A stretch of DNA of 63,509 nucleotides, the filler included. It is 9 parts of 9 records of this genome, joined end to end, with 100 filler letters (N's around TTAATTAATTAA, not from the genome) between each part and the next. Parts side by side here need not be neighbours in the genome. Positions count along the whole stretch, not along the records: positions 51,126 to 58,177 come from DRR723986_26206; 8 more parts are not named here. The stretch is one strand, 5' to 3'. Made by a program: the position numbers and the translations under genes. Position 1 is the first letter of the stretch, and every line of letters starts with the position of its first letter. Of this stretch, positions 4,818-58,277 are shown in pieces. The notes under the pieces were generated by a model. That model searched no databases and was not told the origin of the DNA. It was given only the letters and a program-made list of their open reading frames with translations.

Positions 4818-5003
4818 TCAGCCATTCGGGGCCGGATGCAGGAAGGTCGAGGGCGATGTCTCGGACCCGCGTTCGACCGGCACCTCGATCAGGGCCGGGT
4901 CACCGCTGGCGATGACCCTGTCCGGGGCTTCGGCCAAGGCGGCGGGCGTTTCAGCCCGTTCGGCAGCCATGCCCGAACTGCGCGCCAAGGCCACGAACCG
5001 GTC
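4818..5003 (-). pseudogene. C-terminal remnant of a thiamine-pyrophosphate-dependent (acetolactate synthase-like) enzyme
   Basis: DRFVALARSSGMAAERAETPAALAEAPDRVIASGDPALIEVPV resembles the PDFVxLAxSFG...GPALIEV tail of TPP enzymes. No upstream body of the gene is present. Confidence 0.65.
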
Positions 5004-5523
5004 AAACAGCGCAGGTTGCGCCTCCTGTCGCGGTCCCATCATCGCCGATCCTCCCACCCGTTGCGGAAATTGAATCAGCCAACAGCCCTTCGATCGAGGA
5101 CGCGTTTTTTAACAAAATAAGCCCTTCCTGCCCCGGACGACGCGATCGGCCCAAAGCAGTCATCCACTGTTTCCCGCAACGCTGCGGTGTGGCTTCACCG
5201 AACCGGCCATGCGCAACGCGCATCATTTCCCCCTCCCAGATGACCGCAGAGCGGACATTCCTGCCGTTCGCTGCGTGCGCTCGCTTTCGGCCGCGGTGCC
5301 GAGCGCCCGAAAAATTTAGAAGAGAAGCCACCTTTCGCCATTGGCGGATCGTGCCTCCAAAGCGCCGTGGCGGAGGCGGCCCGCACCTCGGTCGCGCCAG
5401 ATCAAACTCGTTGGCCGCCACGCCAGTGCGTGCCGGATGCGCGCTGCCGGTCAGAAGAGGCCGGTAAAACCGGACCCTCTCAAGTATTTCGGGAAATCAC
5501 CCTTGGTTTTCACCTTGCGGGGC

Positions 5524-13088: not shown

Positions 13089-13188
13089 NNNNNNNNNNNN
13101 NNNNNNNNNNNNNNNNNNNNNNNNNNNNNNNNTTAATTAATTAANNNNNNNNNNNNNNNNNNNNNNNNNNNNNNNNNNNNNNNNNNNN
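13089..13188. other. Artificial contig-joining spacer (N44-TTAATTAATTAA-N44)
   Basis: The identical 100-bp block occurs eight times, has stop codons in all six frames, and interrupts genes on both sides. Confidence 0.98.
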
Positions 13189-20043: not shown

Positions 20044-20143
20044 NNNNNNNNNNNNNNNNNNNNNNNNNNNNNNNNNNNNNNNNNNNNTTAATTAATTAAN
20101 NNNNNNNNNNNNNNNNNNNNNNNNNNNNNNNNNNNNNNNNNNN
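20044..20143. other. Artificial contig-joining spacer
   Basis: N44-TTAATTAATTAA-N44. Confidence 0.98.
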
Positions 20144-26599: not shown

Positions 26600-26699
26600 N
26601 NNNNNNNNNNNNNNNNNNNNNNNNNNNNNNNNNNNNNNNNNNNTTAATTAATTAANNNNNNNNNNNNNNNNNNNNNNNNNNNNNNNNNNNNNNNNNNNN
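26600..26699. other. Artificial contig-joining spacer
   Basis: N44-TTAATTAATTAA-N44. Confidence 0.98.
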
Positions 26700-32986: not shown

Positions 32987-33086
32987 NNNNNNNNNNNNNN
33001 NNNNNNNNNNNNNNNNNNNNNNNNNNNNNNTTAATTAATTAANNNNNNNNNNNNNNNNNNNNNNNNNNNNNNNNNNNNNNNNNNNN
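32987..33086. other. Artificial contig-joining spacer
   Basis: N44-TTAATTAATTAA-N44. Confidence 0.98.
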
Positions 33087-38728: not shown

Positions 38729-38828
38729 NNNNNNNNNNNNNNNNNNNNNNNNNNNNNNNNNNNNNNNNNNNNTTAATTAATTAANNNNNNNNNNNNNNNN
38801 NNNNNNNNNNNNNNNNNNNNNNNNNNNN
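38729..38828. other. Artificial contig-joining spacer
   Basis: N44-TTAATTAATTAA-N44. Confidence 0.98.
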
Positions 38829-44290: not shown

Positions 44291-44390
44291 NNNNNNNNNN
44301 NNNNNNNNNNNNNNNNNNNNNNNNNNNNNNNNNNTTAATTAATTAANNNNNNNNNNNNNNNNNNNNNNNNNNNNNNNNNNNNNNNNNNNN
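44291..44390. other. Artificial contig-joining spacer
   Basis: N44-TTAATTAATTAA-N44. Confidence 0.98.
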
Positions 44391-51025: not shown

Positions 51026-51125
51026 NNNNNNNNNNNNNNNNNNNNNNNNNNNNNNNNNNNNNNNNNNNNTTAATTAATTAANNNNNNNNNNNNNNNNNNN
51101 NNNNNNNNNNNNNNNNNNNNNNNNN
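51026..51125. other. Artificial contig-joining spacer
   Basis: N44-TTAATTAATTAA-N44. Confidence 0.98.
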
Positions 51126-51325
51126 ACTACCATCACCTTCTTTCCTTTAAAGGAACTAAAATCAACCATTTCACCATTTAGGTCTTTCATGGAGAATTCA
51201 TAGAATGATGGAGCCATAACTTCTTTATCAATAGAGGTGTTTTTAGCTTTTAAAACAGAAGTTTCGCTTATAGAGTAGGCACTCATGAGCAACAAAAAAC
51301 AGCCTAGAAATAGTAAATTCTTCAT
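51126..51325 (-). CDS. Glutathione peroxidase-family protein, N-terminal fragment
   Basis: Signal-like leader followed by SFYEFSMKDLNGEMVDFSSFKGKKVMV. Confidence 0.7.
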
Positions 51326-51327
51326 AG

Positions 51328-53118
51328 TTACATTCGTTCGGGTACTGCGATTCCAAGTAATTGCATTCCTTTCCTGAGGGTCTTTGCGGTATGAGCCGAA
51401 AGCGCCACTCGGAAAGCAAGAATGGTTGGATCATTTTCAAGAAATATAGGAAGATCCGCATAGAATCTATTGTATTCCTTCGCCAAATCGAAAAGGTATT
51501 GTGCTAAAATGGCAGGGGAATAATCCAATCCAGCCTGGGATATTTTCTTTTCAAAATCATTCAATAGGTAAATCAAGCTTGATTCTGACTCTTCTACTTT
51601 ATTAACTTTAGAGAAGTCCGCTTGTTTGTATTCGACACCAATTTGTTCAGCTTTTCTTAGTATTGAAGCAATTCGAGCATGCGAATATTGGATAAATGGT
51701 CCAGTGTTGCCCTGAAATTCTATGGATTCCTGAGGATTGAAGAGCATTCGTTTTTTAGGATCCACTTTTAGCAAGAAGTATTTCAAAGCACCCATTCCTA
51801 GTGTTTCATAGAGTTCAGCTGCCTGTTCCTCATTGAAGCCGTCAATTTTACCAAGTTCTTTGGTATGCTGTGCGGCAGTGTCCACCATCTCTTGCATCAA
51901 GTCATCAGCATCTACTACGGTTCCCTCTCGGGACTTCATTTTACCTGTTGGCAAATCTACCATGCCATATGATAAATGGTAAAGTCCTTCTCCATATGGA
52001 CGGCCTAGTTTACGCATAATCTTAAACAAAACATCAAAGTGGTAATCTTGCTCATTACCAACTACATATACTGACTTGCTTATTCCAAAATCATCGTACT
52101 TCAAATCAGCTGTACCCATATCTTGGGTGATGTAAACAGAGGTTCCATCACCGCGAAGAACCAGTTTTTCGTCCAGTCCCTCATCAGTTAAATCCACCCA
52201 AACCGAGCCGTTTTCTTTTTTGAAGAATACTCCTTTTTCTAATCCTTCGCTAACTATGTCTTTTCCTAGAAGGTATGTATCAGACTCATAGTAATATTTG
52301 TCAAAGCTAACTCCCATGCGCTGGTAAGTCTTTTCAAAACCAGCGTAAACCCAGGTATTCATTTGCTTCCAAAGCGAGACAACTTCCTCGTCATTTGCCT
52401 CCCATTTGCGAAGCATTTCCTGCGCTTCAAGGAATAGAGGAGCATTCTTTTTAGCCTCATCTTCAGATTGACCTTTCTCCTTCAATTCAGCAATTTGCTC
52501 TTTGTATTTCTGGTCAAAAATCACATAATATTTTCCAGCCAAGTGGTCACCTTTCAATCCGGAGGATTCTGGAGTTTCGTCATTCCCGAAATGCTGGTAT
52601 GCTACCATAGACTTACAAATGTGAATTCCTCGGTCATTTACCAAATTGGCTTTTATGACTTCGTACCCATTTGCCTCCAGGATGTTTGCGACCGAAAATC
52701 CCAAAAAGTTATTTCTGAGGTGACCAAGGTGAAGAGGTTTATTGGTATTAGGAGAAGAATATTCCACCATCACCTTTTGACCGTTCGCAGGAAGTTGGCC
52801 TATGTTTTCGTTGGCAAATAGCTTTTGGAAAACATCCACCCAGATCATGTTGTTCAGTTCTAGATTCAGGAAGCCTTTCACTACATTGAAACCAGCAACT
52901 TCAGCCACGTTTTCTTTCAAGTATTCACCGATTAGATTTGCTGTGACCTCAGGAGTTGCTTTGGACACTTTCAGGTAGGGAAAAACCACGAAGGTGTAAG
53001 TTCCTTCAAATTCCTTCCGCGTAGGAGCGAGGCTGATCTGATCTATTGGTAGATCGTGATTGAAGATATTCTGAAAGGCAAGCTGTATGCCGTTATGTAT
53101 TGATTCTTGTATGTTCAT
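51328..53118 (-). CDS. argS: Arginine--tRNA ligase
   Basis: Motifs VEYSSPNTNKPLHLGHLRN, KMKSREG, GNTGPFIQY and the terminal PERM. Confidence 0.96.
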   Translation of the reverse strand: MNIQESIHNGIQLAFQNIFNHDLPIDQISLAPTRKEFEGTYTFVVFPYLKVSKATPEVTANLIGEYLKENVAEVAGFNVVKGFLNLELNNMIWVDVFQKLFANENIGQLPANGQKVMVEYSSPNTNKPLHLGHLRNNFLGFSVANILEANGYEVIKANLVNDRGIHICKSMVAYQHFGNDETPESSGLKGDHLAGKYYVIFDQKYKEQIAELKEKGQSEDEAKKNAPLFLEAQEMLRKWEANDEEVVSLWKQMNTWVYAGFEKTYQRMGVSFDKYYYESDTYLLGKDIVSEGLEKGVFFKKENGSVWVDLTDEGLDEKLVLRGDGTSVYITQDMGTADLKYDDFGISKSVYVVGNEQDYHFDVLFKIMRKLGRPYGEGLYHLSYGMVDLPTGKMKSREGTVVDADDLMQEMVDTAAQHTKELGKIDGFNEEQAAELYETLGMGALKYFLLKVDPKKRMLFNPQESIEFQGNTGPFIQYSHARIASILRKAEQIGVEYKQADFSKVNKVEESESSLIYLLNDFEKKISQAGLDYSPAILAQYLFDLAKEYNRFYADLPIFLENDPTILAFRVALSAHTAKTLRKGMQLLGIAVPERM

Positions 53119-53124
53119 ATTTTT

Positions 53125-53642
53125 TTAACCGCAGAGCACGCAAAGATTTCGCAGAGGGCGCAATTGATTCATTTTATGTTTTTATTTATATTCTGGGTTT
53201 CGTATTTGCAACTCTTTGAATTCCATATTTTAGTTGGGAAACATTAAAGTTAATAAGCAGACCCAATTTGTATTTTCCGATTTTTACGTAGTTAAGCGTT
53301 TGGGCAAAATGAACGTCGTTGAGTATATCAACTGATTTCAATTCCAAAACTAATTTCCTTTCCACCAAAATATCAATTATGTAGCCAACGTCTAAGTTAA
53401 TTCCATCAATTACTAATGGCATTTTTTTCTCTACTTCTACAAAAATACCAGCTTTCTGGAGTTAAAAGGTAAAACTTGCTTATATGCATTTTCTAAAAGT
53501 CCAGGCCCTAATTGACGATGGACATCTATTGCTATGCCAATAACCCGTGTGGCAATTTCATTTTCAAGTATGAGATCTTCGTCAATCATAAGTGTTTTTA
53601 CTCAGTGTACTCTGCGCAAAACTCCGTGCACTTTGCGGTTAA
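53125..53642. mobile_element. Candidate inverted-repeat-bounded GxxExxY cassette
   Basis: Left arm 53125-53163 TTAACCGCAGAGCACGCAAAGATTTCGCAGAGGGCGCAA. Right arm 53601-53642 reverse-complements to TTAACCGCAAAGTGCACGGAGTTTTGCGCAGAGTACACTGAG. The arms enclose only the GxxExxY gene. Mobility is inferred. Confidence 0.55.
53186..53589 (-). pseudogene. GxxExxY protein (PD-(D/E)XK nuclease-like), frameshifted
   Basis: From ATG 53589 the frame reads MIDEDLILENEIATRVIGIAIDVHRQLGPGLLENAYKQVL. A one-base loss near 53462 shifts it to ...LQKAGIFVEVEKKMPLV...YIIDILVERKLVLELKS...HFAQTLNY...GLLINF. Total length is 404 nt (3n-1). Confidence 0.85.
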
Positions 53643-53647
53643 TAAAC

Positions 53648-54598
53648 CTAGAAATTATCTACCAAAGACTTTACTGTTGCTTCTAGAACTTCGAATGCGT
53701 TTTCGGCCATCAGATTCTCCGAGTCAAGGGTAGGATTCACTTCTACGATTTCCCAGCAGCATACTCGCTTATCCTGAATCAGTTTGACATTAAGTTCTAT
53801 CGCTTCCTGTACAGTCAAGCCATCTGGCACTGGAGTACCAGTACCCACAGAGATGGAGCTATCCAAACTATCCACATCAAAGGAAATATAGATTTGATCG
53901 CAATCTTTCAGCGCTTCCAACGCTTCAGCAGAGATTTGATCAATCCCCTTTGAACGGACTTCCTGAGTACTGAAGTTTTTGATGCCGTAATTTTTGATCA
54001 GATGATCTTCCGGTGCTTCGGTATCGCGTACTGTGATGAATACGATATCCTTGGGATCAATTTTTGGAGATTCACCGCCGATAGCCTTGATTCGTTTCCA
54101 TAGAGCCAAAGTCTCTTCTGAGGGTTCATTCACCTGACAATCCAAATTATCCAATTGAGAAACCATCGCCAAGGGCATTCCATGCATATTTCCGGAAGGA
54201 GTGGTGAATGGTGTGTGTAAATCAGCATGTGCATCAATCCAAATCACTCCTAAACGCTTATCAGGATCGGCAGCTTTGATGCCCATGATAGTGCCTGCCG
54301 CAGTGCTGTGGTCTCCCGCCAAAACGATAGGAAATTTTTTCTCCATACGTAAAGATTCGATCGTGGAATAGACATTTTTCAAAACCTGATAAACGCCATC
54401 GATGTATTTAGCATGTGGGAAATTGTTGCCTTTCCATAGGTAGTTATTCGCGTCAGGAACGTTGATAGGGTCAAACTGTGTGAAGAAGTCAGACTTCTTA
54501 TCTAAGCTGGCAATTTTCAAAGCATCTATACCCATGCTTGCTCCACGGGTTCCGGCGGCAATCTCTGACCGTACTTCTACTAATTTAATATCACGCAT
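53648..54598 (-). CDS. rocF: Arginase
   Basis: Motifs LAGDHS, WIDAHAD, SGNMHGMP, SFDVDSLD, GTGTPV and EIVEVNP. Confidence 0.93.
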   Translation of the reverse strand: MRDIKLVEVRSEIAAGTRGASMGIDALKIASLDKKSDFFTQFDPINVPDANNYLWKGNNFPHAKYIDGVYQVLKNVYSTIESLRMEKKFPIVLAGDHSTAAGTIMGIKAADPDKRLGVIWIDAHADLHTPFTTPSGNMHGMPLAMVSQLDNLDCQVNEPSEETLALWKRIKAIGGESPKIDPKDIVFITVRDTEAPEDHLIKNYGIKNFSTQEVRSKGIDQISAEALEALKDCDQIYISFDVDSLDSSISVGTGTPVPDGLTVQEAIELNVKLIQDKRVCCWEIVEVNPTLDSENLMAENAFEVLEATVKSLVDNF

Positions 54599-54667
54599 TC
54601 TAAGAGGAATTTAAAGTTATAGTGGGTTGGGTAATGGAAGGCAAAAGTAGTTAAAAATGCCTTTAAA

Positions 54668-54709
54668 TGATCAATAATCAAAGTTCAATTGACAATGGAC
54701 AAAGTTCAA
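54668..54709. repeat. 6 x degenerate 7-bp tandem repeat (NNNWCAA)
   Basis: TGATCAA TAATCAA AGTTCAA TTGACAA TGGACAA AGTTCAA. Confidence 0.65.
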
Positions 54710-54750
54710 ATTTTGAAATTATAGAAATGCCAATTTGTTAGAGTCTAGTT

Positions 54751-54877
54751 TTTCCCGCAGATTCCCGCGGAGAAGGGTAGAAGATTTCTGCAGATCTGAT
54801 AATCTAGTAAGTGTGAATTTTCCATTAGTTAAATCGGCGTAAATCTGCGGTATTTAGTTGCGCACATCGGCGGGAAA
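54751..54877. repeat. Gene-less REPIN/MITE-like inverted repeat
   Basis: TTTCCCGCAGAT... at the left end and ...ATCGGCGGGAAA at the right end. Each arm carries several CGC(A/C)GAT units around a spacer of about 35 bp. Confidence 0.65.
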
Positions 54878-54924
54878 TCAAGACGAATTATAAGATTTTA
54901 CTTCAAAATCAATAGTTTTGAACT

Positions 54925-56073
54925 ATGCCTATTTTATCTAAACTTCCCAACGTAGGGACCACAATTTTTACAGTAATGTCCAAGCTTGCAAGTGATTGTG
55001 GAGCTATTAATCTTTCGCAGGGGTTCCCTGGTTTTGATTGTGATCCCGAATTACTCGACTTGGTAAATAAATACATGAAGGCGGGTTTTAACCAGTATGC
55101 GCCGATGAGTGGGATACCTGTTTTGCGTGAGCGGATTGCTGATAAAACTAAGCTGGTCTATGACGTTGACTTGAATTCAGAAAATGAAGTGACCGTTGTT
55201 TCTGGAGCTACTGAAGCACTTTATGCGGCGGTGACGGCTGTTGTGAGGCGGGGAGATGAAGTTATATTATTTGATCCAGCCTATGATTCTTATGCTCCAG
55301 CTATAGCATTGAACGGAGGAATTCCAGTTTATGTCCCGCTTGAAATGCCTGATTTTTCTGTGGATTGGGAAAAGGTGAAATCAGCAATCTCAGATACAAC
55401 ACGCCTGATCATGGTGAATACCCCGCATAATCCAAGTGGCTACGTTTGGACACAAGAGGATTTGGATACCCTTGCAGATTTGATTCAGGACACAGATATT
55501 TTAGTTGTTAGTGATGAAGTGTATGAGCATATCACCTTTGATGGAAGAAAGCATTTGTCACTAGTAACCCATCCTACTTTGATAGACCGAACTTTCGTAT
55601 GTGGCTCTTTCGGGAAGACTTTTCATGTGACGGGCTGGAAGATTGGTTATTGTTTGGCCCCACCGCAACTCACAGCAGAATTCCGAAAGGTTCATCAGTT
55701 TTTGACTTTCAGCACTGCTACTCCATTACAATATGCTTTGGCAGATTACTTGGCTGAGCCATCTCGTTATTTGACTCTTCCTGATTTTTACCAGCAGAAA
55801 CGGGATTTGTTCTGTGAAGGACTTAAGGAAAGCCCTTTTAAGTTTACCCCAGCCCAAGGAAGCTTCTTCCAAATGGTGTCCTATGGACATCTTTCCAAAG
55901 AATCAGATTATGATTTGGCTGTTCGCCTTACCAAGGAAATAGGAGTGGCGAGCATCCCTATCTCCGTGTTTTTCTCTAATAAGAAAGATCACAAAATTCT
56001 TAGATTTTGCTTCGCAAAGAAGGATTCAGAGCTTTATGTGGCTTTGGATAAACTTAAAGAAATTAAATTATAG
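54925..56073 (+). CDS. Class I PLP aminotransferase, YbdL (methionine aminotransferase)-like
   Basis: Motifs SKLPNVGTTIFTVMS, INLSQGFP, NTPHNPSG, SDEVYEH, SFGKTFHVTGWKIGY and RFCFAK. Confidence 0.9.
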   Translation: MPILSKLPNVGTTIFTVMSKLASDCGAINLSQGFPGFDCDPELLDLVNKYMKAGFNQYAPMSGIPVLRERIADKTKLVYDVDLNSENEVTVVSGATEALYAAVTAVVRRGDEVILFDPAYDSYAPAIALNGGIPVYVPLEMPDFSVDWEKVKSAISDTTRLIMVNTPHNPSGYVWTQEDLDTLADLIQDTDILVVSDEVYEHITFDGRKHLSLVTHPTLIDRTFVCGSFGKTFHVTGWKIGYCLAPPQLTAEFRKVHQFLTFSTATPLQYALADYLAEPSRYLTLPDFYQQKRDLFCEGLKESPFKFTPAQGSFFQMVSYGHLSKESDYDLAVRLTKEIGVASIPISVFFSNKKDHKILRFCFAKKDSELYVALDKLKEIKL

Positions 56074-56205
56074 TCTAATAATCAGTCTGTTATGTGAAAA
56101 TAAATTTCATTTATTTAATAACCCTATAAATATTATAGGGAATATAGGATAATATAAAAATCACTTCTATATTTGGCTTATAGTTTAATTCTAAAACTCA
56201 AAACA

Positions 56206-56640
56206 ATGAGCGCATTACCACAAATAAAACCTTCATCAATAGAACAGGTGAATGTATTGGCCAATGGATTTTCTAAAGTATCAGCTAATCAGAAGGAAAT
56301 CGTGAAGATTTTCAATCAAAAAGCTGGAATGGTAATGCAAGGGATGTGCAGCTTTGAGCAGGATTTTGAGTATTTATACCCGTTATTTAGGGGCTTAAGT
56401 GAGGCGGGAAAGCCAGCAAGTTTGAATTTACGGTTCTCTTCTTCTGAAAAATCGGTTTATTTTCACTATCCAATATCCAGTCAGACTGAGGTGTCTCTTT
56501 TCTTTTCACAGTTGATTTTGCATTTGCAAAATGAAGTGAAATTCAAAAAAGTACTGAAAGAGGTGATTGTGAACAGAAATCAATTTAAATCCGAACAATT
56601 TTTGCTACAAAATGCGATGATGGATTCAGCAGTAAATTAA
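56206..56640 (+). CDS. Hypothetical protein
   Basis: 144-aa ORF between a TAnnTTTG promoter motif (56168-56175) and a terminator-like hairpin. Confidence 0.65.
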   Translation: MSALPQIKPSSIEQVNVLANGFSKVSANQKEIVKIFNQKAGMVMQGMCSFEQDFEYLYPLFRGLSEAGKPASLNLRFSSSEKSVYFHYPISSQTEVSLFFSQLILHLQNEVKFKKVLKEVIVNRNQFKSEQFLLQNAMMDSAVN

Positions 56641-56666
56641 GAAATCATTACAATTCATTAATAATA

Positions 56667-56696
56667 GGGACAGTCTTCAGGGATTTGTCCCTTTTT
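56667..56696 (+). terminator. Intrinsic terminator
   Basis: AGGGACA...TGTCCCT followed by a T-run. Confidence 0.6.
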
Positions 56697-56758
56697 CATT
56701 TGAATTCATCCGATAAAAAGCAATTTTTGTAGGGCTTTAACACCAATTATTTTTGCAA

Positions 56759-58144
56759 ATGAATACATACAAGGATCTGATTGAGCAGACATTTGATTTT
56801 CCAACCAAGGAATTTAAAGTTGAAAACAATGAACTGCATTTCAATGGAGTGAATATGATGGAGATCATAGAAACCTATGGTACTCCGCTCAAACTTTCTT
56901 ATTTGCCCAAAATCTCTGAAAGTATTCAGAACGCAAAGACGTATTTTAAGAATGCAATGGAGCAGCACGATTATAAGGGTAATTATACTTATTGCTATTG
57001 CACCAAGTCTTCTCACTTCAGCTTTGTGCTGAATGAAGCGCTAAAAAATGACATTCATATCGAGACTTCCTCGACTTTTGATATCCCTTTGGTAAGAAGT
57101 CTTTATGCTCAGGGTAAAATCACTAAGAATACGTTTATCGTTTGCAACGGTTTCAAGCGTGAGCTTTATAAGCAATACATCACGGAGTTGCTCAATGACG
57201 GTTTCGTGAACTGCGTGCCTGTTTTGGATAATTTGACAGAGATCGATTATTACTTGGAGCATGTGAAAGTGCCTTTCCAGGTGGGGATCAGAATCGCAGC
57301 AGATGAGGAGCCAAAGTTTGGTTTTTATACTTCTAGATTAGGTGTGAGATACAATGATATCATCAAGCTTTACGAAGATAAAATCAAGGATAATCCGAAT
57401 GTAAGCCTGAAAATGCTGCATTTCTTTATCAATTCTGGAATTAGGGATACCGCCTATTACTGGTCTGAACTGACGCGTTTTATCCAGAAATATGTGGATT
57501 TGAAAAAGATCTCACCAACATTGGATTCCATGGATATTGGAGGCGGTTGGCCGATCAAGACGAATGTCTTTTTCGATTATGACTACCAATACATGGCGGA
57601 GCAAATCGTGAAGAATATCAAGTGGATGTGTGGAAAAAACAACACAGACGAACCTAATATTTTCACGGAATTTGGAAGCTATACAGTAGGAGAGAGTGGG
57701 GCTGTGCTCTATTCAGTTTTGGAAGAAAAGCTGCAAAATGACAAGGAGCTTTGGTATATGATAGATGGCTCATTTATTACGCAATTGCCTGATAGCTGGG
57801 GTCTTAACCAGAAATACATCATGTTAGCCGTAAATAACTGGGATGCTGAGTATCATAACATCAATCTCGGTGGCTTGACTTGTGATAGCATGGATTATTA
57901 TAATTCAGAAGCTCACCAATTCAATATTTACCTCCCAAAACCTGAGAAGAAAGTTCAGTATTTAGGCTTCTTCCATACAGGTGCTTATCAAGAATCTCTC
58001 GGTGGATATGGTGGAATCCAGCATTGTTTGATTCCAGCACCAAAACATGTGTTGATTGATAGAGATGAGGACGGAAATGTTACCCATCGACTTTTCGCAG
58101 AAGACCAAACTGAGGAGAGTATGTTAAAAACTCTGGGATACTAA
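56759..58144 (+). CDS. speA: Arginine decarboxylase (short Bacteroidota type)
   Basis: PLP lysine in YCYCTKSSH, plus CNGFK, LHFF, DIGGG, TEFG, GGLTCDS and FFHTGAYQE. Confidence 0.85.
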   Translation: MNTYKDLIEQTFDFPTKEFKVENNELHFNGVNMMEIIETYGTPLKLSYLPKISESIQNAKTYFKNAMEQHDYKGNYTYCYCTKSSHFSFVLNEALKNDIHIETSSTFDIPLVRSLYAQGKITKNTFIVCNGFKRELYKQYITELLNDGFVNCVPVLDNLTEIDYYLEHVKVPFQVGIRIAADEEPKFGFYTSRLGVRYNDIIKLYEDKIKDNPNVSLKMLHFFINSGIRDTAYYWSELTRFIQKYVDLKKISPTLDSMDIGGGWPIKTNVFFDYDYQYMAEQIVKNIKWMCGKNNTDEPNIFTEFGSYTVGESGAVLYSVLEEKLQNDKELWYMIDGSFITQLPDSWGLNQKYIMLAVNNWDAEYHNINLGGLTCDSMDYYNSEAHQFNIYLPKPEKKVQYLGFFHTGAYQESLGGYGGIQHCLIPAPKHVLIDRDEDGNVTHRLFAEDQTEESMLKTLGY

Positions 58145-58177
58145 AACTAAGATTTAATGGTCAAAAATAGTTGGTAA

Positions 58178-58277
58178 NNNNNNNNNNNNNNNNNNNNNNN
58201 NNNNNNNNNNNNNNNNNNNNNTTAATTAATTAANNNNNNNNNNNNNNNNNNNNNNNNNNNNNNNNNNNNNNNNNNNN
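58178..58277. other. Artificial contig-joining spacer
   Basis: N44-TTAATTAATTAA-N44. Confidence 0.98.

Follow-up and report, generated by a model that had tools for sequence, protein, structure and literature searches.

A frameshifted GxxExxY nuclease gene between inverted word arrays at the arginase-argS junction of Algoriphagus: a possible selfish cassette tied to one chromosomal site

A block of DNA lying between an arginase-family gene and argS is best explained as an old cassette of gene plus arms, bound to one chromosomal site and present here as a decaying copy. The unit comprises a PD-(D/E)XK nuclease gene of the GxxExxY family placed between two inverted arrays of three to four phased heptamer words, and it is passed on, exchanged, broken and lost as a whole, together with its arms. 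We infer a selfish cassette that is both homing-endonuclease-like and rRNA-intervening-sequence-like, with arms that would be the putative binding sites of the nuclease, and assign this reading a probability of roughly 0.4. The locus offers a natural experiment, as a single site in one genus exhibits intact, broken, gutted, arm-only and empty states together with at least three deep alleles and recent swaps. It lets one ask, in a bacterium that is harmless and can be cultivated, whether the nuclease recognizes its words, whether the unit drives its own copying, and whether it is kin to the ORF-bearing rRNA intervening sequences.

The window, which is the whole 63,509-nucleotide stretch of DNA that was analysed, is a chain of about nine unrelated contigs with G+C contents from 35% to 77%, of which only the piece at 51126-58177 belongs with the cassette. 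The contigs are joined by N44 + ttaattaattaa + N44, so that 16 N runs of 44 bases are paired around a 12-base linker. The host piece is 7 kb long with ~38% G+C, and carries three co-oriented minus-strand genes in the order arginase-family gene, broken PF13366 gene and argS (Table 1).

Table 1 Features of the window; positions count along the whole stretch.
Feature	Position	Strand	Description
Contig joints	13089-13188, 20044-20143, 26600-26699, 32987-33086, 38729-38828, 44291-44390, 51026-51125, 58178-58277		
argS (arginyl-tRNA synthetase, 596 aa), downstream neighbour	51328..53118	-	PF00750, PF05746
Cassette block	53125-53642		gene on minus strand; between arginase-family gene and argS
argS-proximal arm (3' relative to GxxExxY gene)	53125..53166		TTAACC + CGCAGAG (53130), CGCAAAG (53139), CGCAGAG (53150), CGCAA.. 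(53159); 9-11-nt spacing
GxxExxY / PDDEXK_3 gene, frameshifted	53186..53589	-	PF13366; 1-bp deletion near 53461
GxxExxY gene, N-terminal piece	53437-53589	-	matches PF13366
GxxExxY gene, C-terminal piece	53186-53422	-	matches PF13366
Arginase-proximal arm (5' relative to GxxExxY gene)	53601..53642		minus-strand reading TTAACC + CGCAAAG, CACGGAG, CGCAGAG, CACTGAG; plus-strand word starts 53631, 53622, 53610, 53601
Arginase-family gene (316 aa), upstream neighbour	53648..54598	-	PF00491, 9.3e-56

The coordinates and letters on which the original prediction was based match the sequence, as do the short distances that it gave from the arms to the neighbouring genes, 5 bases to the arginase stop codon (53648-53650) and 6 bases to the argS ATG (53116-53118). 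The inverted arms are ~40 nt each and contain 3-4 CRCRRAG words apiece. The 12-mer at their outer ends, TTAACCGCAGAG at 53125-53136 on the plus strand and TTAACCGCAAAG at 53631-53642 on the minus strand, has no other exact copy in the window. The proposal that the units are conserved and the spacers are not holds roughly, with an arm-to-arm identity of 83% within words and 67% outside, a count that is partly circular because the words were chosen by pattern. A repeat search recovers the arms as a 29-nt inverted pair with 72% complementarity, a modest figure that would also fit an ordinary small gene whose flanks resemble each other by chance. The arms are identical to those of the orthologous locus of Algoriphagus winogradskyi DSM 15360 (L001), whose inverted-repeat score exceeds those of 200 out of 200 shuffles (z 6.6).

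The contig aligns with L001 at 98.5% identity over 7027 bp. L001 encodes an intact 134-residue homologue (L001:5010-5411), relative to which the window copy is frameshifted by a 1-bp deletion. Both forms of position 53461 are found among public contigs, with the extra base present in runs X1 and X4, and the frameshift may therefore be a genuine allele; alternatively, it may be a product of the window's own source. None of the contigs of four public runs joins across the cassette, and the sole joint (X5) is that of a diverged relative with 573 other letters.

The passenger is a GxxExxY gene with a nuclease motif, as predicted. Its two pieces match PF13366 with E-values of 8e-19 and 3.7e-7 (68.6 and 30.9 bits; cut-off 22), and the intact L001 homologue matches TIGR04256 with 125.3 bits (cut-off 35). 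The family includes 13,852 representative clusters (50% identity) at E <= 0.001. Gly28, Gly30, Tyr36 and Asp73 are invariant across 72 sequences, and Glu33, Glu83, Lys85, Gln97 and Tyr101 are at least 90% conserved; we take Gln97 and Tyr101 to be a QxxxY-like pair. Both the GxxExxY motif and the PD-(D/E)XK core (E...D...ExK) are complete in the family, and the frame is broken in the window copy. The structure model (pLDDT 94) adopts a restriction-endonuclease-like fold, and the nearest chains are BpuSI (Z score of 8.0), Cas4 SSO0001 (Z score of 7.6) and Hjc (Z score of 5.8). Among solved folds, Foldseek places Cas4 4r5q and 4ic1 nearest (E 1.5e-3 to 1e-2; Z score of 7.6 for 4ic1). The protein thus resembles the Cas4/RecB-type enzymes in its nearest folds and in the Gln97...Tyr101 pair, but at ~130 residues it is without the Fe-S cluster domain or a CRISPR context, and the Z scores are in the common-fold range. 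As judged from the model, the resemblance to Cas4, to restriction-enzyme nuclease domains and to Hjc is at the common-fold level only. Searches of PDB sequences with the protein and its profile gave no match even at E up to 10, and the ESM Atlas gave no usable match for the protein. Entries P0002-P0004 and P0056 comprise natural two-domain GxxExxY proteins of ~280-295 residues, in which the second domain lacks the Asp and the ExK, and one protein with an RNase H-like domain fused ahead of the GxxExxY domain. The two-domain forms hint at a dimer as the working unit.

One Cas4 gene was labelled GxxExxY by an annotation pipeline, according to a published account (PMC8934634), and the function of PF13366 is listed as 'Unknown' in a 2012 superfamily survey (PMC3424549). 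The open-access literature searched, supplementary files aside, yielded neither a known function for the GxxExxY family nor a published account of the gene-plus-arms unit.

Comparison of the arginase-argS junction across relatives, which the original prediction had proposed, revealed filled, decayed, arm-only and empty sites and bears out the view of gene plus arms as a discrete, dispensable unit. A search with the arginase protein yielded 80 Cyclobacteriaceae loci, 78 of them with argS downstream on the same strand; L060 and L074, for which no argS N-terminus was obtained, are outside these 78 junctions. The arginase-argS gaps range from 21 to 883 bp. Forty-five gaps of at least 300 bp hold a GxxExxY gene or its wreck with word arrays at both ends, and 31 of these 45 cassettes retain an ORF of at least 115 residues, the other 14 copies being broken. 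The host tree comprises 77 rows because the argS of L044 is cut short, and its junction states are cassette (44), arm-only (9), other sequence (18) and empty (6). The cassette label changes at least 8 times on this tree, and 6 of the changes are forced by well-supported branches. Arm-only junctions retain the argS-side arm. The six empty junctions, with gaps of 21-36 bp, are all in more distant species, so the exact insertion borders are unreadable; no clean empty site was found in any close relative among the junctions compared. Four loci on the tree bear the titles 'uncultured Limnohabitans' or 'Planctomycetota bacterium' (L032, L052, L059 and L061). They are Algoriphagus-like arginase-argS loci with 82-85% identity, nest inside Algoriphagus, and are probably mis-binned.

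The arms of 29 of the 45 cassettes have an inverted-repeat score above all 200 shuffles, as opposed to 0 of 210 arbitrary 350-bp windows of the same loci. The same design surrounds paralogous genes that use other words. Inverted arrays beating all 200 shuffles flank 5 of 6 other PF13366 genes in three Algoriphagus genomes; in two Belliella genomes they flank 4 of 9. The control windows again give 0/210, in line with the expectation that other GxxExxY genes have such arms. Fortuitous flanking similarity is thus scarcely credible as the source of the inverted arms, notwithstanding the modest complementarity of the window pair.

The cassette lineage of the window occupies a single site. The best matches to the L001 protein in 81 genomes of the genus, one per genome and 63-100% identical, are located at the arginase-argS junction in 28 out of 28 cases, and occupancy of a single site across genomes is a property looked for in homing genes; the next two matches fetched, with 50% and 48% identity, are not at this junction. 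Thus, no transposition of this GxxExxY lineage was seen among the 28 close homologues of the 81 Algoriphagus genomes. The junction harbours several deep alleles, at least three, each with arm words of its own (CGCAGAG/CACGGAG, CACAAAG and CACAGAG types). Pairwise comparison of flanks and cassettes indicates that related hosts may hold different alleles and distant hosts the same one. L001 and L002 share 94% identity in the flanks and 69% in the cassette, and two strains of one named species, L003 and L010, share 94% and 63%, respectively. The opposite relation is exhibited by L001 and L012 (flanks 83%, cassette 93%) and by L016 and L017, the latter a metagenome bin (flanks 86%, cassette 100%). 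The divergent stretch between alleles stops at the outermost arm words. The 100% tract of L016 and L017 spans positions -56 to +573, fading out in argS, and the high-identity tract of L001 and L012 likewise continues into argS, with an overrun of ~100 bp in the shared alleles of the two pairs examined. The hypothesis that the proteins of the window's host clade form one clade was rejected by an AU test (p 0.0004), the group having been named after the gene tree was seen. Synonymous divergence in the cassette is lower than in the arginase gene of the same genomes (dS of 0.22 versus 3.2, and 0.95 versus 2.2).

The cassette of L013 (junction 4952-5479) is a broken chimera of two lineages joined within the gene. 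Its left arm and N-terminus are those of the window's lineage, its C-terminus and right arm are those of the CACAGAG lineage, and its left end keeps one outer word of the latter. Judged from these alignments, whole cassettes with their arms look as though they have been exchanged between Algoriphagus species by homologous recombination. As traced by sequence identity, exchanged cassettes end up at one and the same arginase|argS junction, with high-identity tracts that can extend into the flanking genes.

In REP/BIME elements associated with RAYT genes (REPtrons, REPINs), inverted copies of a repeat lie on either side of a gene; the repeat also occurs dispersed, away from the gene, and forms mosaic clusters. 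The original prediction classed the cassette as a transposase-free selfish element of this kind, in which case the GxxExxY nuclease would mobilise dispersed AACC-word arms, moving itself and the arms by transposition. The anatomy agrees, with a gene flanked by inverted arms, gene-less arms elsewhere and mosaic clusters. The A. winogradskyi genome contains 21 three-word arrays, two of which are the cassette arms, compared with 0 for the reversed-pattern control; single AACC-arms number 15. Dispersed arms of the same consensus occur at 5-30 per genome in 16 of the 17 genomes of the window's clade (reversed-pattern controls 0-1), and the sole exception, L009, has a gutted cassette and 0 arms. Most gene-less arrays are single arms that start with (T)TTAACC, several of them followed by a small hairpin. 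One locus, L165 (G007:C1:50800-51900), carries at ~360-840 a BIME-like mosaic of six ~85-bp tandem units, each combining one TTTAACC-word arm with a spacer and a small hairpin (cctgcttctccggaagctgg). Another, L167 (G009:C2:304300-306100), has at ~770-1090 two AACC-word arms that face each other in inverted orientation ~290 bp apart, with no gene and no detectable GxxExxY remnant between them.

Several observations oppose transposition by such a nuclease. Besides the single locus of the 28 close homologues, outside the window's clade the arm counts do not track the gene (median ~3 arms in 22 cassette-bearing genomes versus ~2 in 29 others), and genomes with broken GxxExxY genes still have 22-29 arms. 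Juxtaposed inverted doublets resembling REPINs hardly occur, being found by a strict pattern in 1 of 81 genomes. The protein, whose sole Pfam/NCBIfam matches are PF13366 and TIGR04256, is a PD-(D/E)XK enzyme, in contrast to the HUH/Y1 (IS200/IS605-like) enzymes of RAYT systems. The cassette arm is a word array rather than the small palindrome of a REP, its copy number is low, and no movement between loci was seen. The suggestion of TTAA as a target duplication fails as well. Only 3 of 45 cassettes have TTAAC(C/T) and its mirror at both ends; another 10 have it at the left end alone, 16 at the right end alone, and 16 lack it altogether. TTAA is therefore not a conserved target duplication, in contrast to the duplicated target of a piggyBac-like transposon. 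TTAACC also heads the solitary arms and is therefore part of the arm. The REP/RAYT analogy fits the anatomy and fails on the enzyme, the doublets and the movement. What remains of the initial proposal is a discrete, dispensable unit with inverted arms that also occur dispersed and gene-less, and a REP/RAYT-like transposing system is unlikely.

Other repeats accompany the arms in these genomes. The array at L166 is looser than that at L165 and includes other modules. The arm pair of L167 is downstream of a gene whose product contains the peptide PENHPAREMQDTFF, and encloses other repeat modules. Further intergenic repeat families form small hairpins of 30-50 nt (L096, 256-287; L089, 139-171 and 267-317), each with many occurrences in every Algoriphagus genome searched. 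At L115 (G004:C5), the orthologue of the L096 site, a ~150-bp unit with two hairpin modules is present as a tandem triplicate beside a solitary arm. A reading of the arms alone as promoters, based on TTTG motifs in CTTTGCG words, was dropped as the words of other lineages are without TTTG.

Intact GxxExxY genes are under strong purifying selection, with dN/dS of 0.04-0.12 in four lineages, though about a third of the copies are dead. The arms may serve a use of their own, because one solitary arm situated 10-14 nt upstream of the start of an unrelated gene is kept in 5 of 6 genomes, its words preserved and its spacers changed, and because the argS-side arm outlives the gene at the 9 arm-only junctions. 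These features, together with the maintenance of deep alleles at one locus and the several other small repeat families, would suit a host-useful accessory nuclease, with a role in defence or repair and situated at a hot spot of recombination, its gene being lodged among ordinary regulatory or structural intergenic repeats. Against this are the 14 broken copies among 45, the 6 empty and 18 otherwise filled junctions, the change of the arms along with the gene lineage, and the association of inverted arm pairing with small ORFs, with none in the 210 control windows. We consider a host-useful nuclease of this type rather unlikely.

The layout is not confined to nuclease genes. In A. winogradskyi, 7 of 11 genes of PF05635 (23S_rRNA_IVP), a four-helix-bundle family, are flanked by inverted arrays beating all 200 shuffles, and the word is particular to each copy at loci L104-L113 (among them GAAGACGG, ATTTGAAA and TTGGAAAA). 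These genes share the layout without the nuclease fold, and the architecture therefore needs no GxxExxY enzyme. The ORFs of the 23S rRNA intervening sequences, such as the helix-45 intervening sequence of Coxiella burnetii and those of Leptospira and others, belong to PF05635 (S23p). These sequences have terminal inverted repeats, and RNase III excises them at their 28-bp terminal stem, as described in PMC4990558. As characterized there, an intervening sequence is, like the cassette, a dispensable block of ~0.43-0.5 kb with one small, decay-prone ORF and terminal inverted repeats, and the PF05635 genes of A. winogradskyi have the inverted-array layout of the cassette. The two differ in that the cassette is located between protein genes, arginase and argS, instead of in rRNA, and encodes a PD-(D/E)XK nuclease instead of a four-helix bundle. 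Moreover, the cassette arms are imperfect arrays of phased words that are ~75% complementary (1203 matches and 234 transversion mismatches in 38 cassettes), whereas the intervening sequence has a near-perfect 28-bp stem. The usual arm comprises three words, and the spacing between word starts is mostly 9 nt (56 cases), followed by 12 (25), 10 (16) and 21 nt (16).

By analogy with the rRNA-borne relatives, the arms could act at the RNA level: by pairing with each other in the arginase-argS transcript they would form a closing stem for cleavage by RNase III, with the ORF looped out and the neighbouring genes uncoupled or tuned. The gene is co-directional with both neighbours in 45 of 45 cassettes, the minimum-energy and centroid structures of the folded L001 cassette are both closed by a stem of the paired arms, and the PF05635 cassettes share the layout. 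The imperfect complementarity opposes this reading, as do the solitary arms, which have no pairing partner, and a whole-cassette fold of L001 with a z of only -1.1. An excess of G.U-type mismatches, expected of an RNA stem, is absent from the 38 cassettes, which on the sense strand have 68 G.U-type versus 106 A.C-type mismatches; as the rows are related, no formal test applies, yet the preponderance of A.C-type mismatches is evidence against a maintained RNA helix. An Rfam scan of the L001 region identified no family at threshold and no rRNA match, the best hit being rteR with 22 bits against a gathering score of 72. A strict RNA reading is physically possible, yet without the expected mismatch pattern, and is distinctly improbable.

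The reading that we prefer, that of a selfish homing-like cassette, draws on a second known system. PD-(D/E)XK is one of six named families of homing endonucleases, and the seg and mob genes of phage T4 are free-standing, according to PMC2988022 and PMC6083498. In the terms of these accounts, the cassette resembles a free-standing homing gene as a nuclease gene between conserved genes at a fixed site, patchy in distribution and often degenerate, which appears to move between genomes to the same site with tracts that reach the flanks, a picture that ordinary recombination leaves as well. It differs in that its hosts are cellular chromosomes, not phages or introns. Homing genes are not known to be surrounded by inverted word arrays.

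The selfish cassette could operate as follows. The GxxExxY protein, as a dimer, would bind the phased words of its own arms, and the gene may split a pseudo-palindromic site of which each arm is one half. If DNA were broken or recombination intermediates were formed at cognate arms, copying of the cassette into that site could be promoted. Spread and replacement would then be homing-like and recombination-dependent, rather than cut-and-paste transposition, and the reading of its own words by the nuclease would help the unit to persist and to displace rivals at its site. The design would be that of the ORF-bearing 23S rRNA intervening sequences, moved to an mRNA operon, with a nuclease in place of the four-helix-bundle ORF. 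The homing component is weakened because plain allelic replacement after DNA uptake leaves equal tracts, because the four-helix-bundle cassettes exhibit the same design without a nuclease, because some arms look useful on their own, because very low dN/dS also fits a host-useful gene, and because some PF13366 paralogues (L086, L161-L163) sit between two complete hairpins, not inside a split pair.

A more general proposal, which we regard as doubtful, is that the GxxExxY cassettes, the PF05635 cassettes and the ORF-bearing 23S rRNA intervening sequences constitute one large, undescribed class of minimal selfish elements. In such elements a small dimeric protein would read arrays of phased 7-base words, its gene would lie in the middle of its own pseudo-palindromic site, the single arms and arm-hairpin mosaics would be half-sites and debris, and spread would proceed by break-induced copying into cognate arms. 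If true, a shared class would give a function to the GxxExxY family and an origin to the rRNA intervening sequences.

At a second site, L087 (G003:C1:4003800-4007200), a newer GxxExxY cassette with CGCGGCG-type arms follows a gene ending in EEWVLPEID. It adjoins what is left of an older, L081/L085-type cassette, namely its final 16 codons and its right arm, an arrangement that is either nested or a partial replacement.
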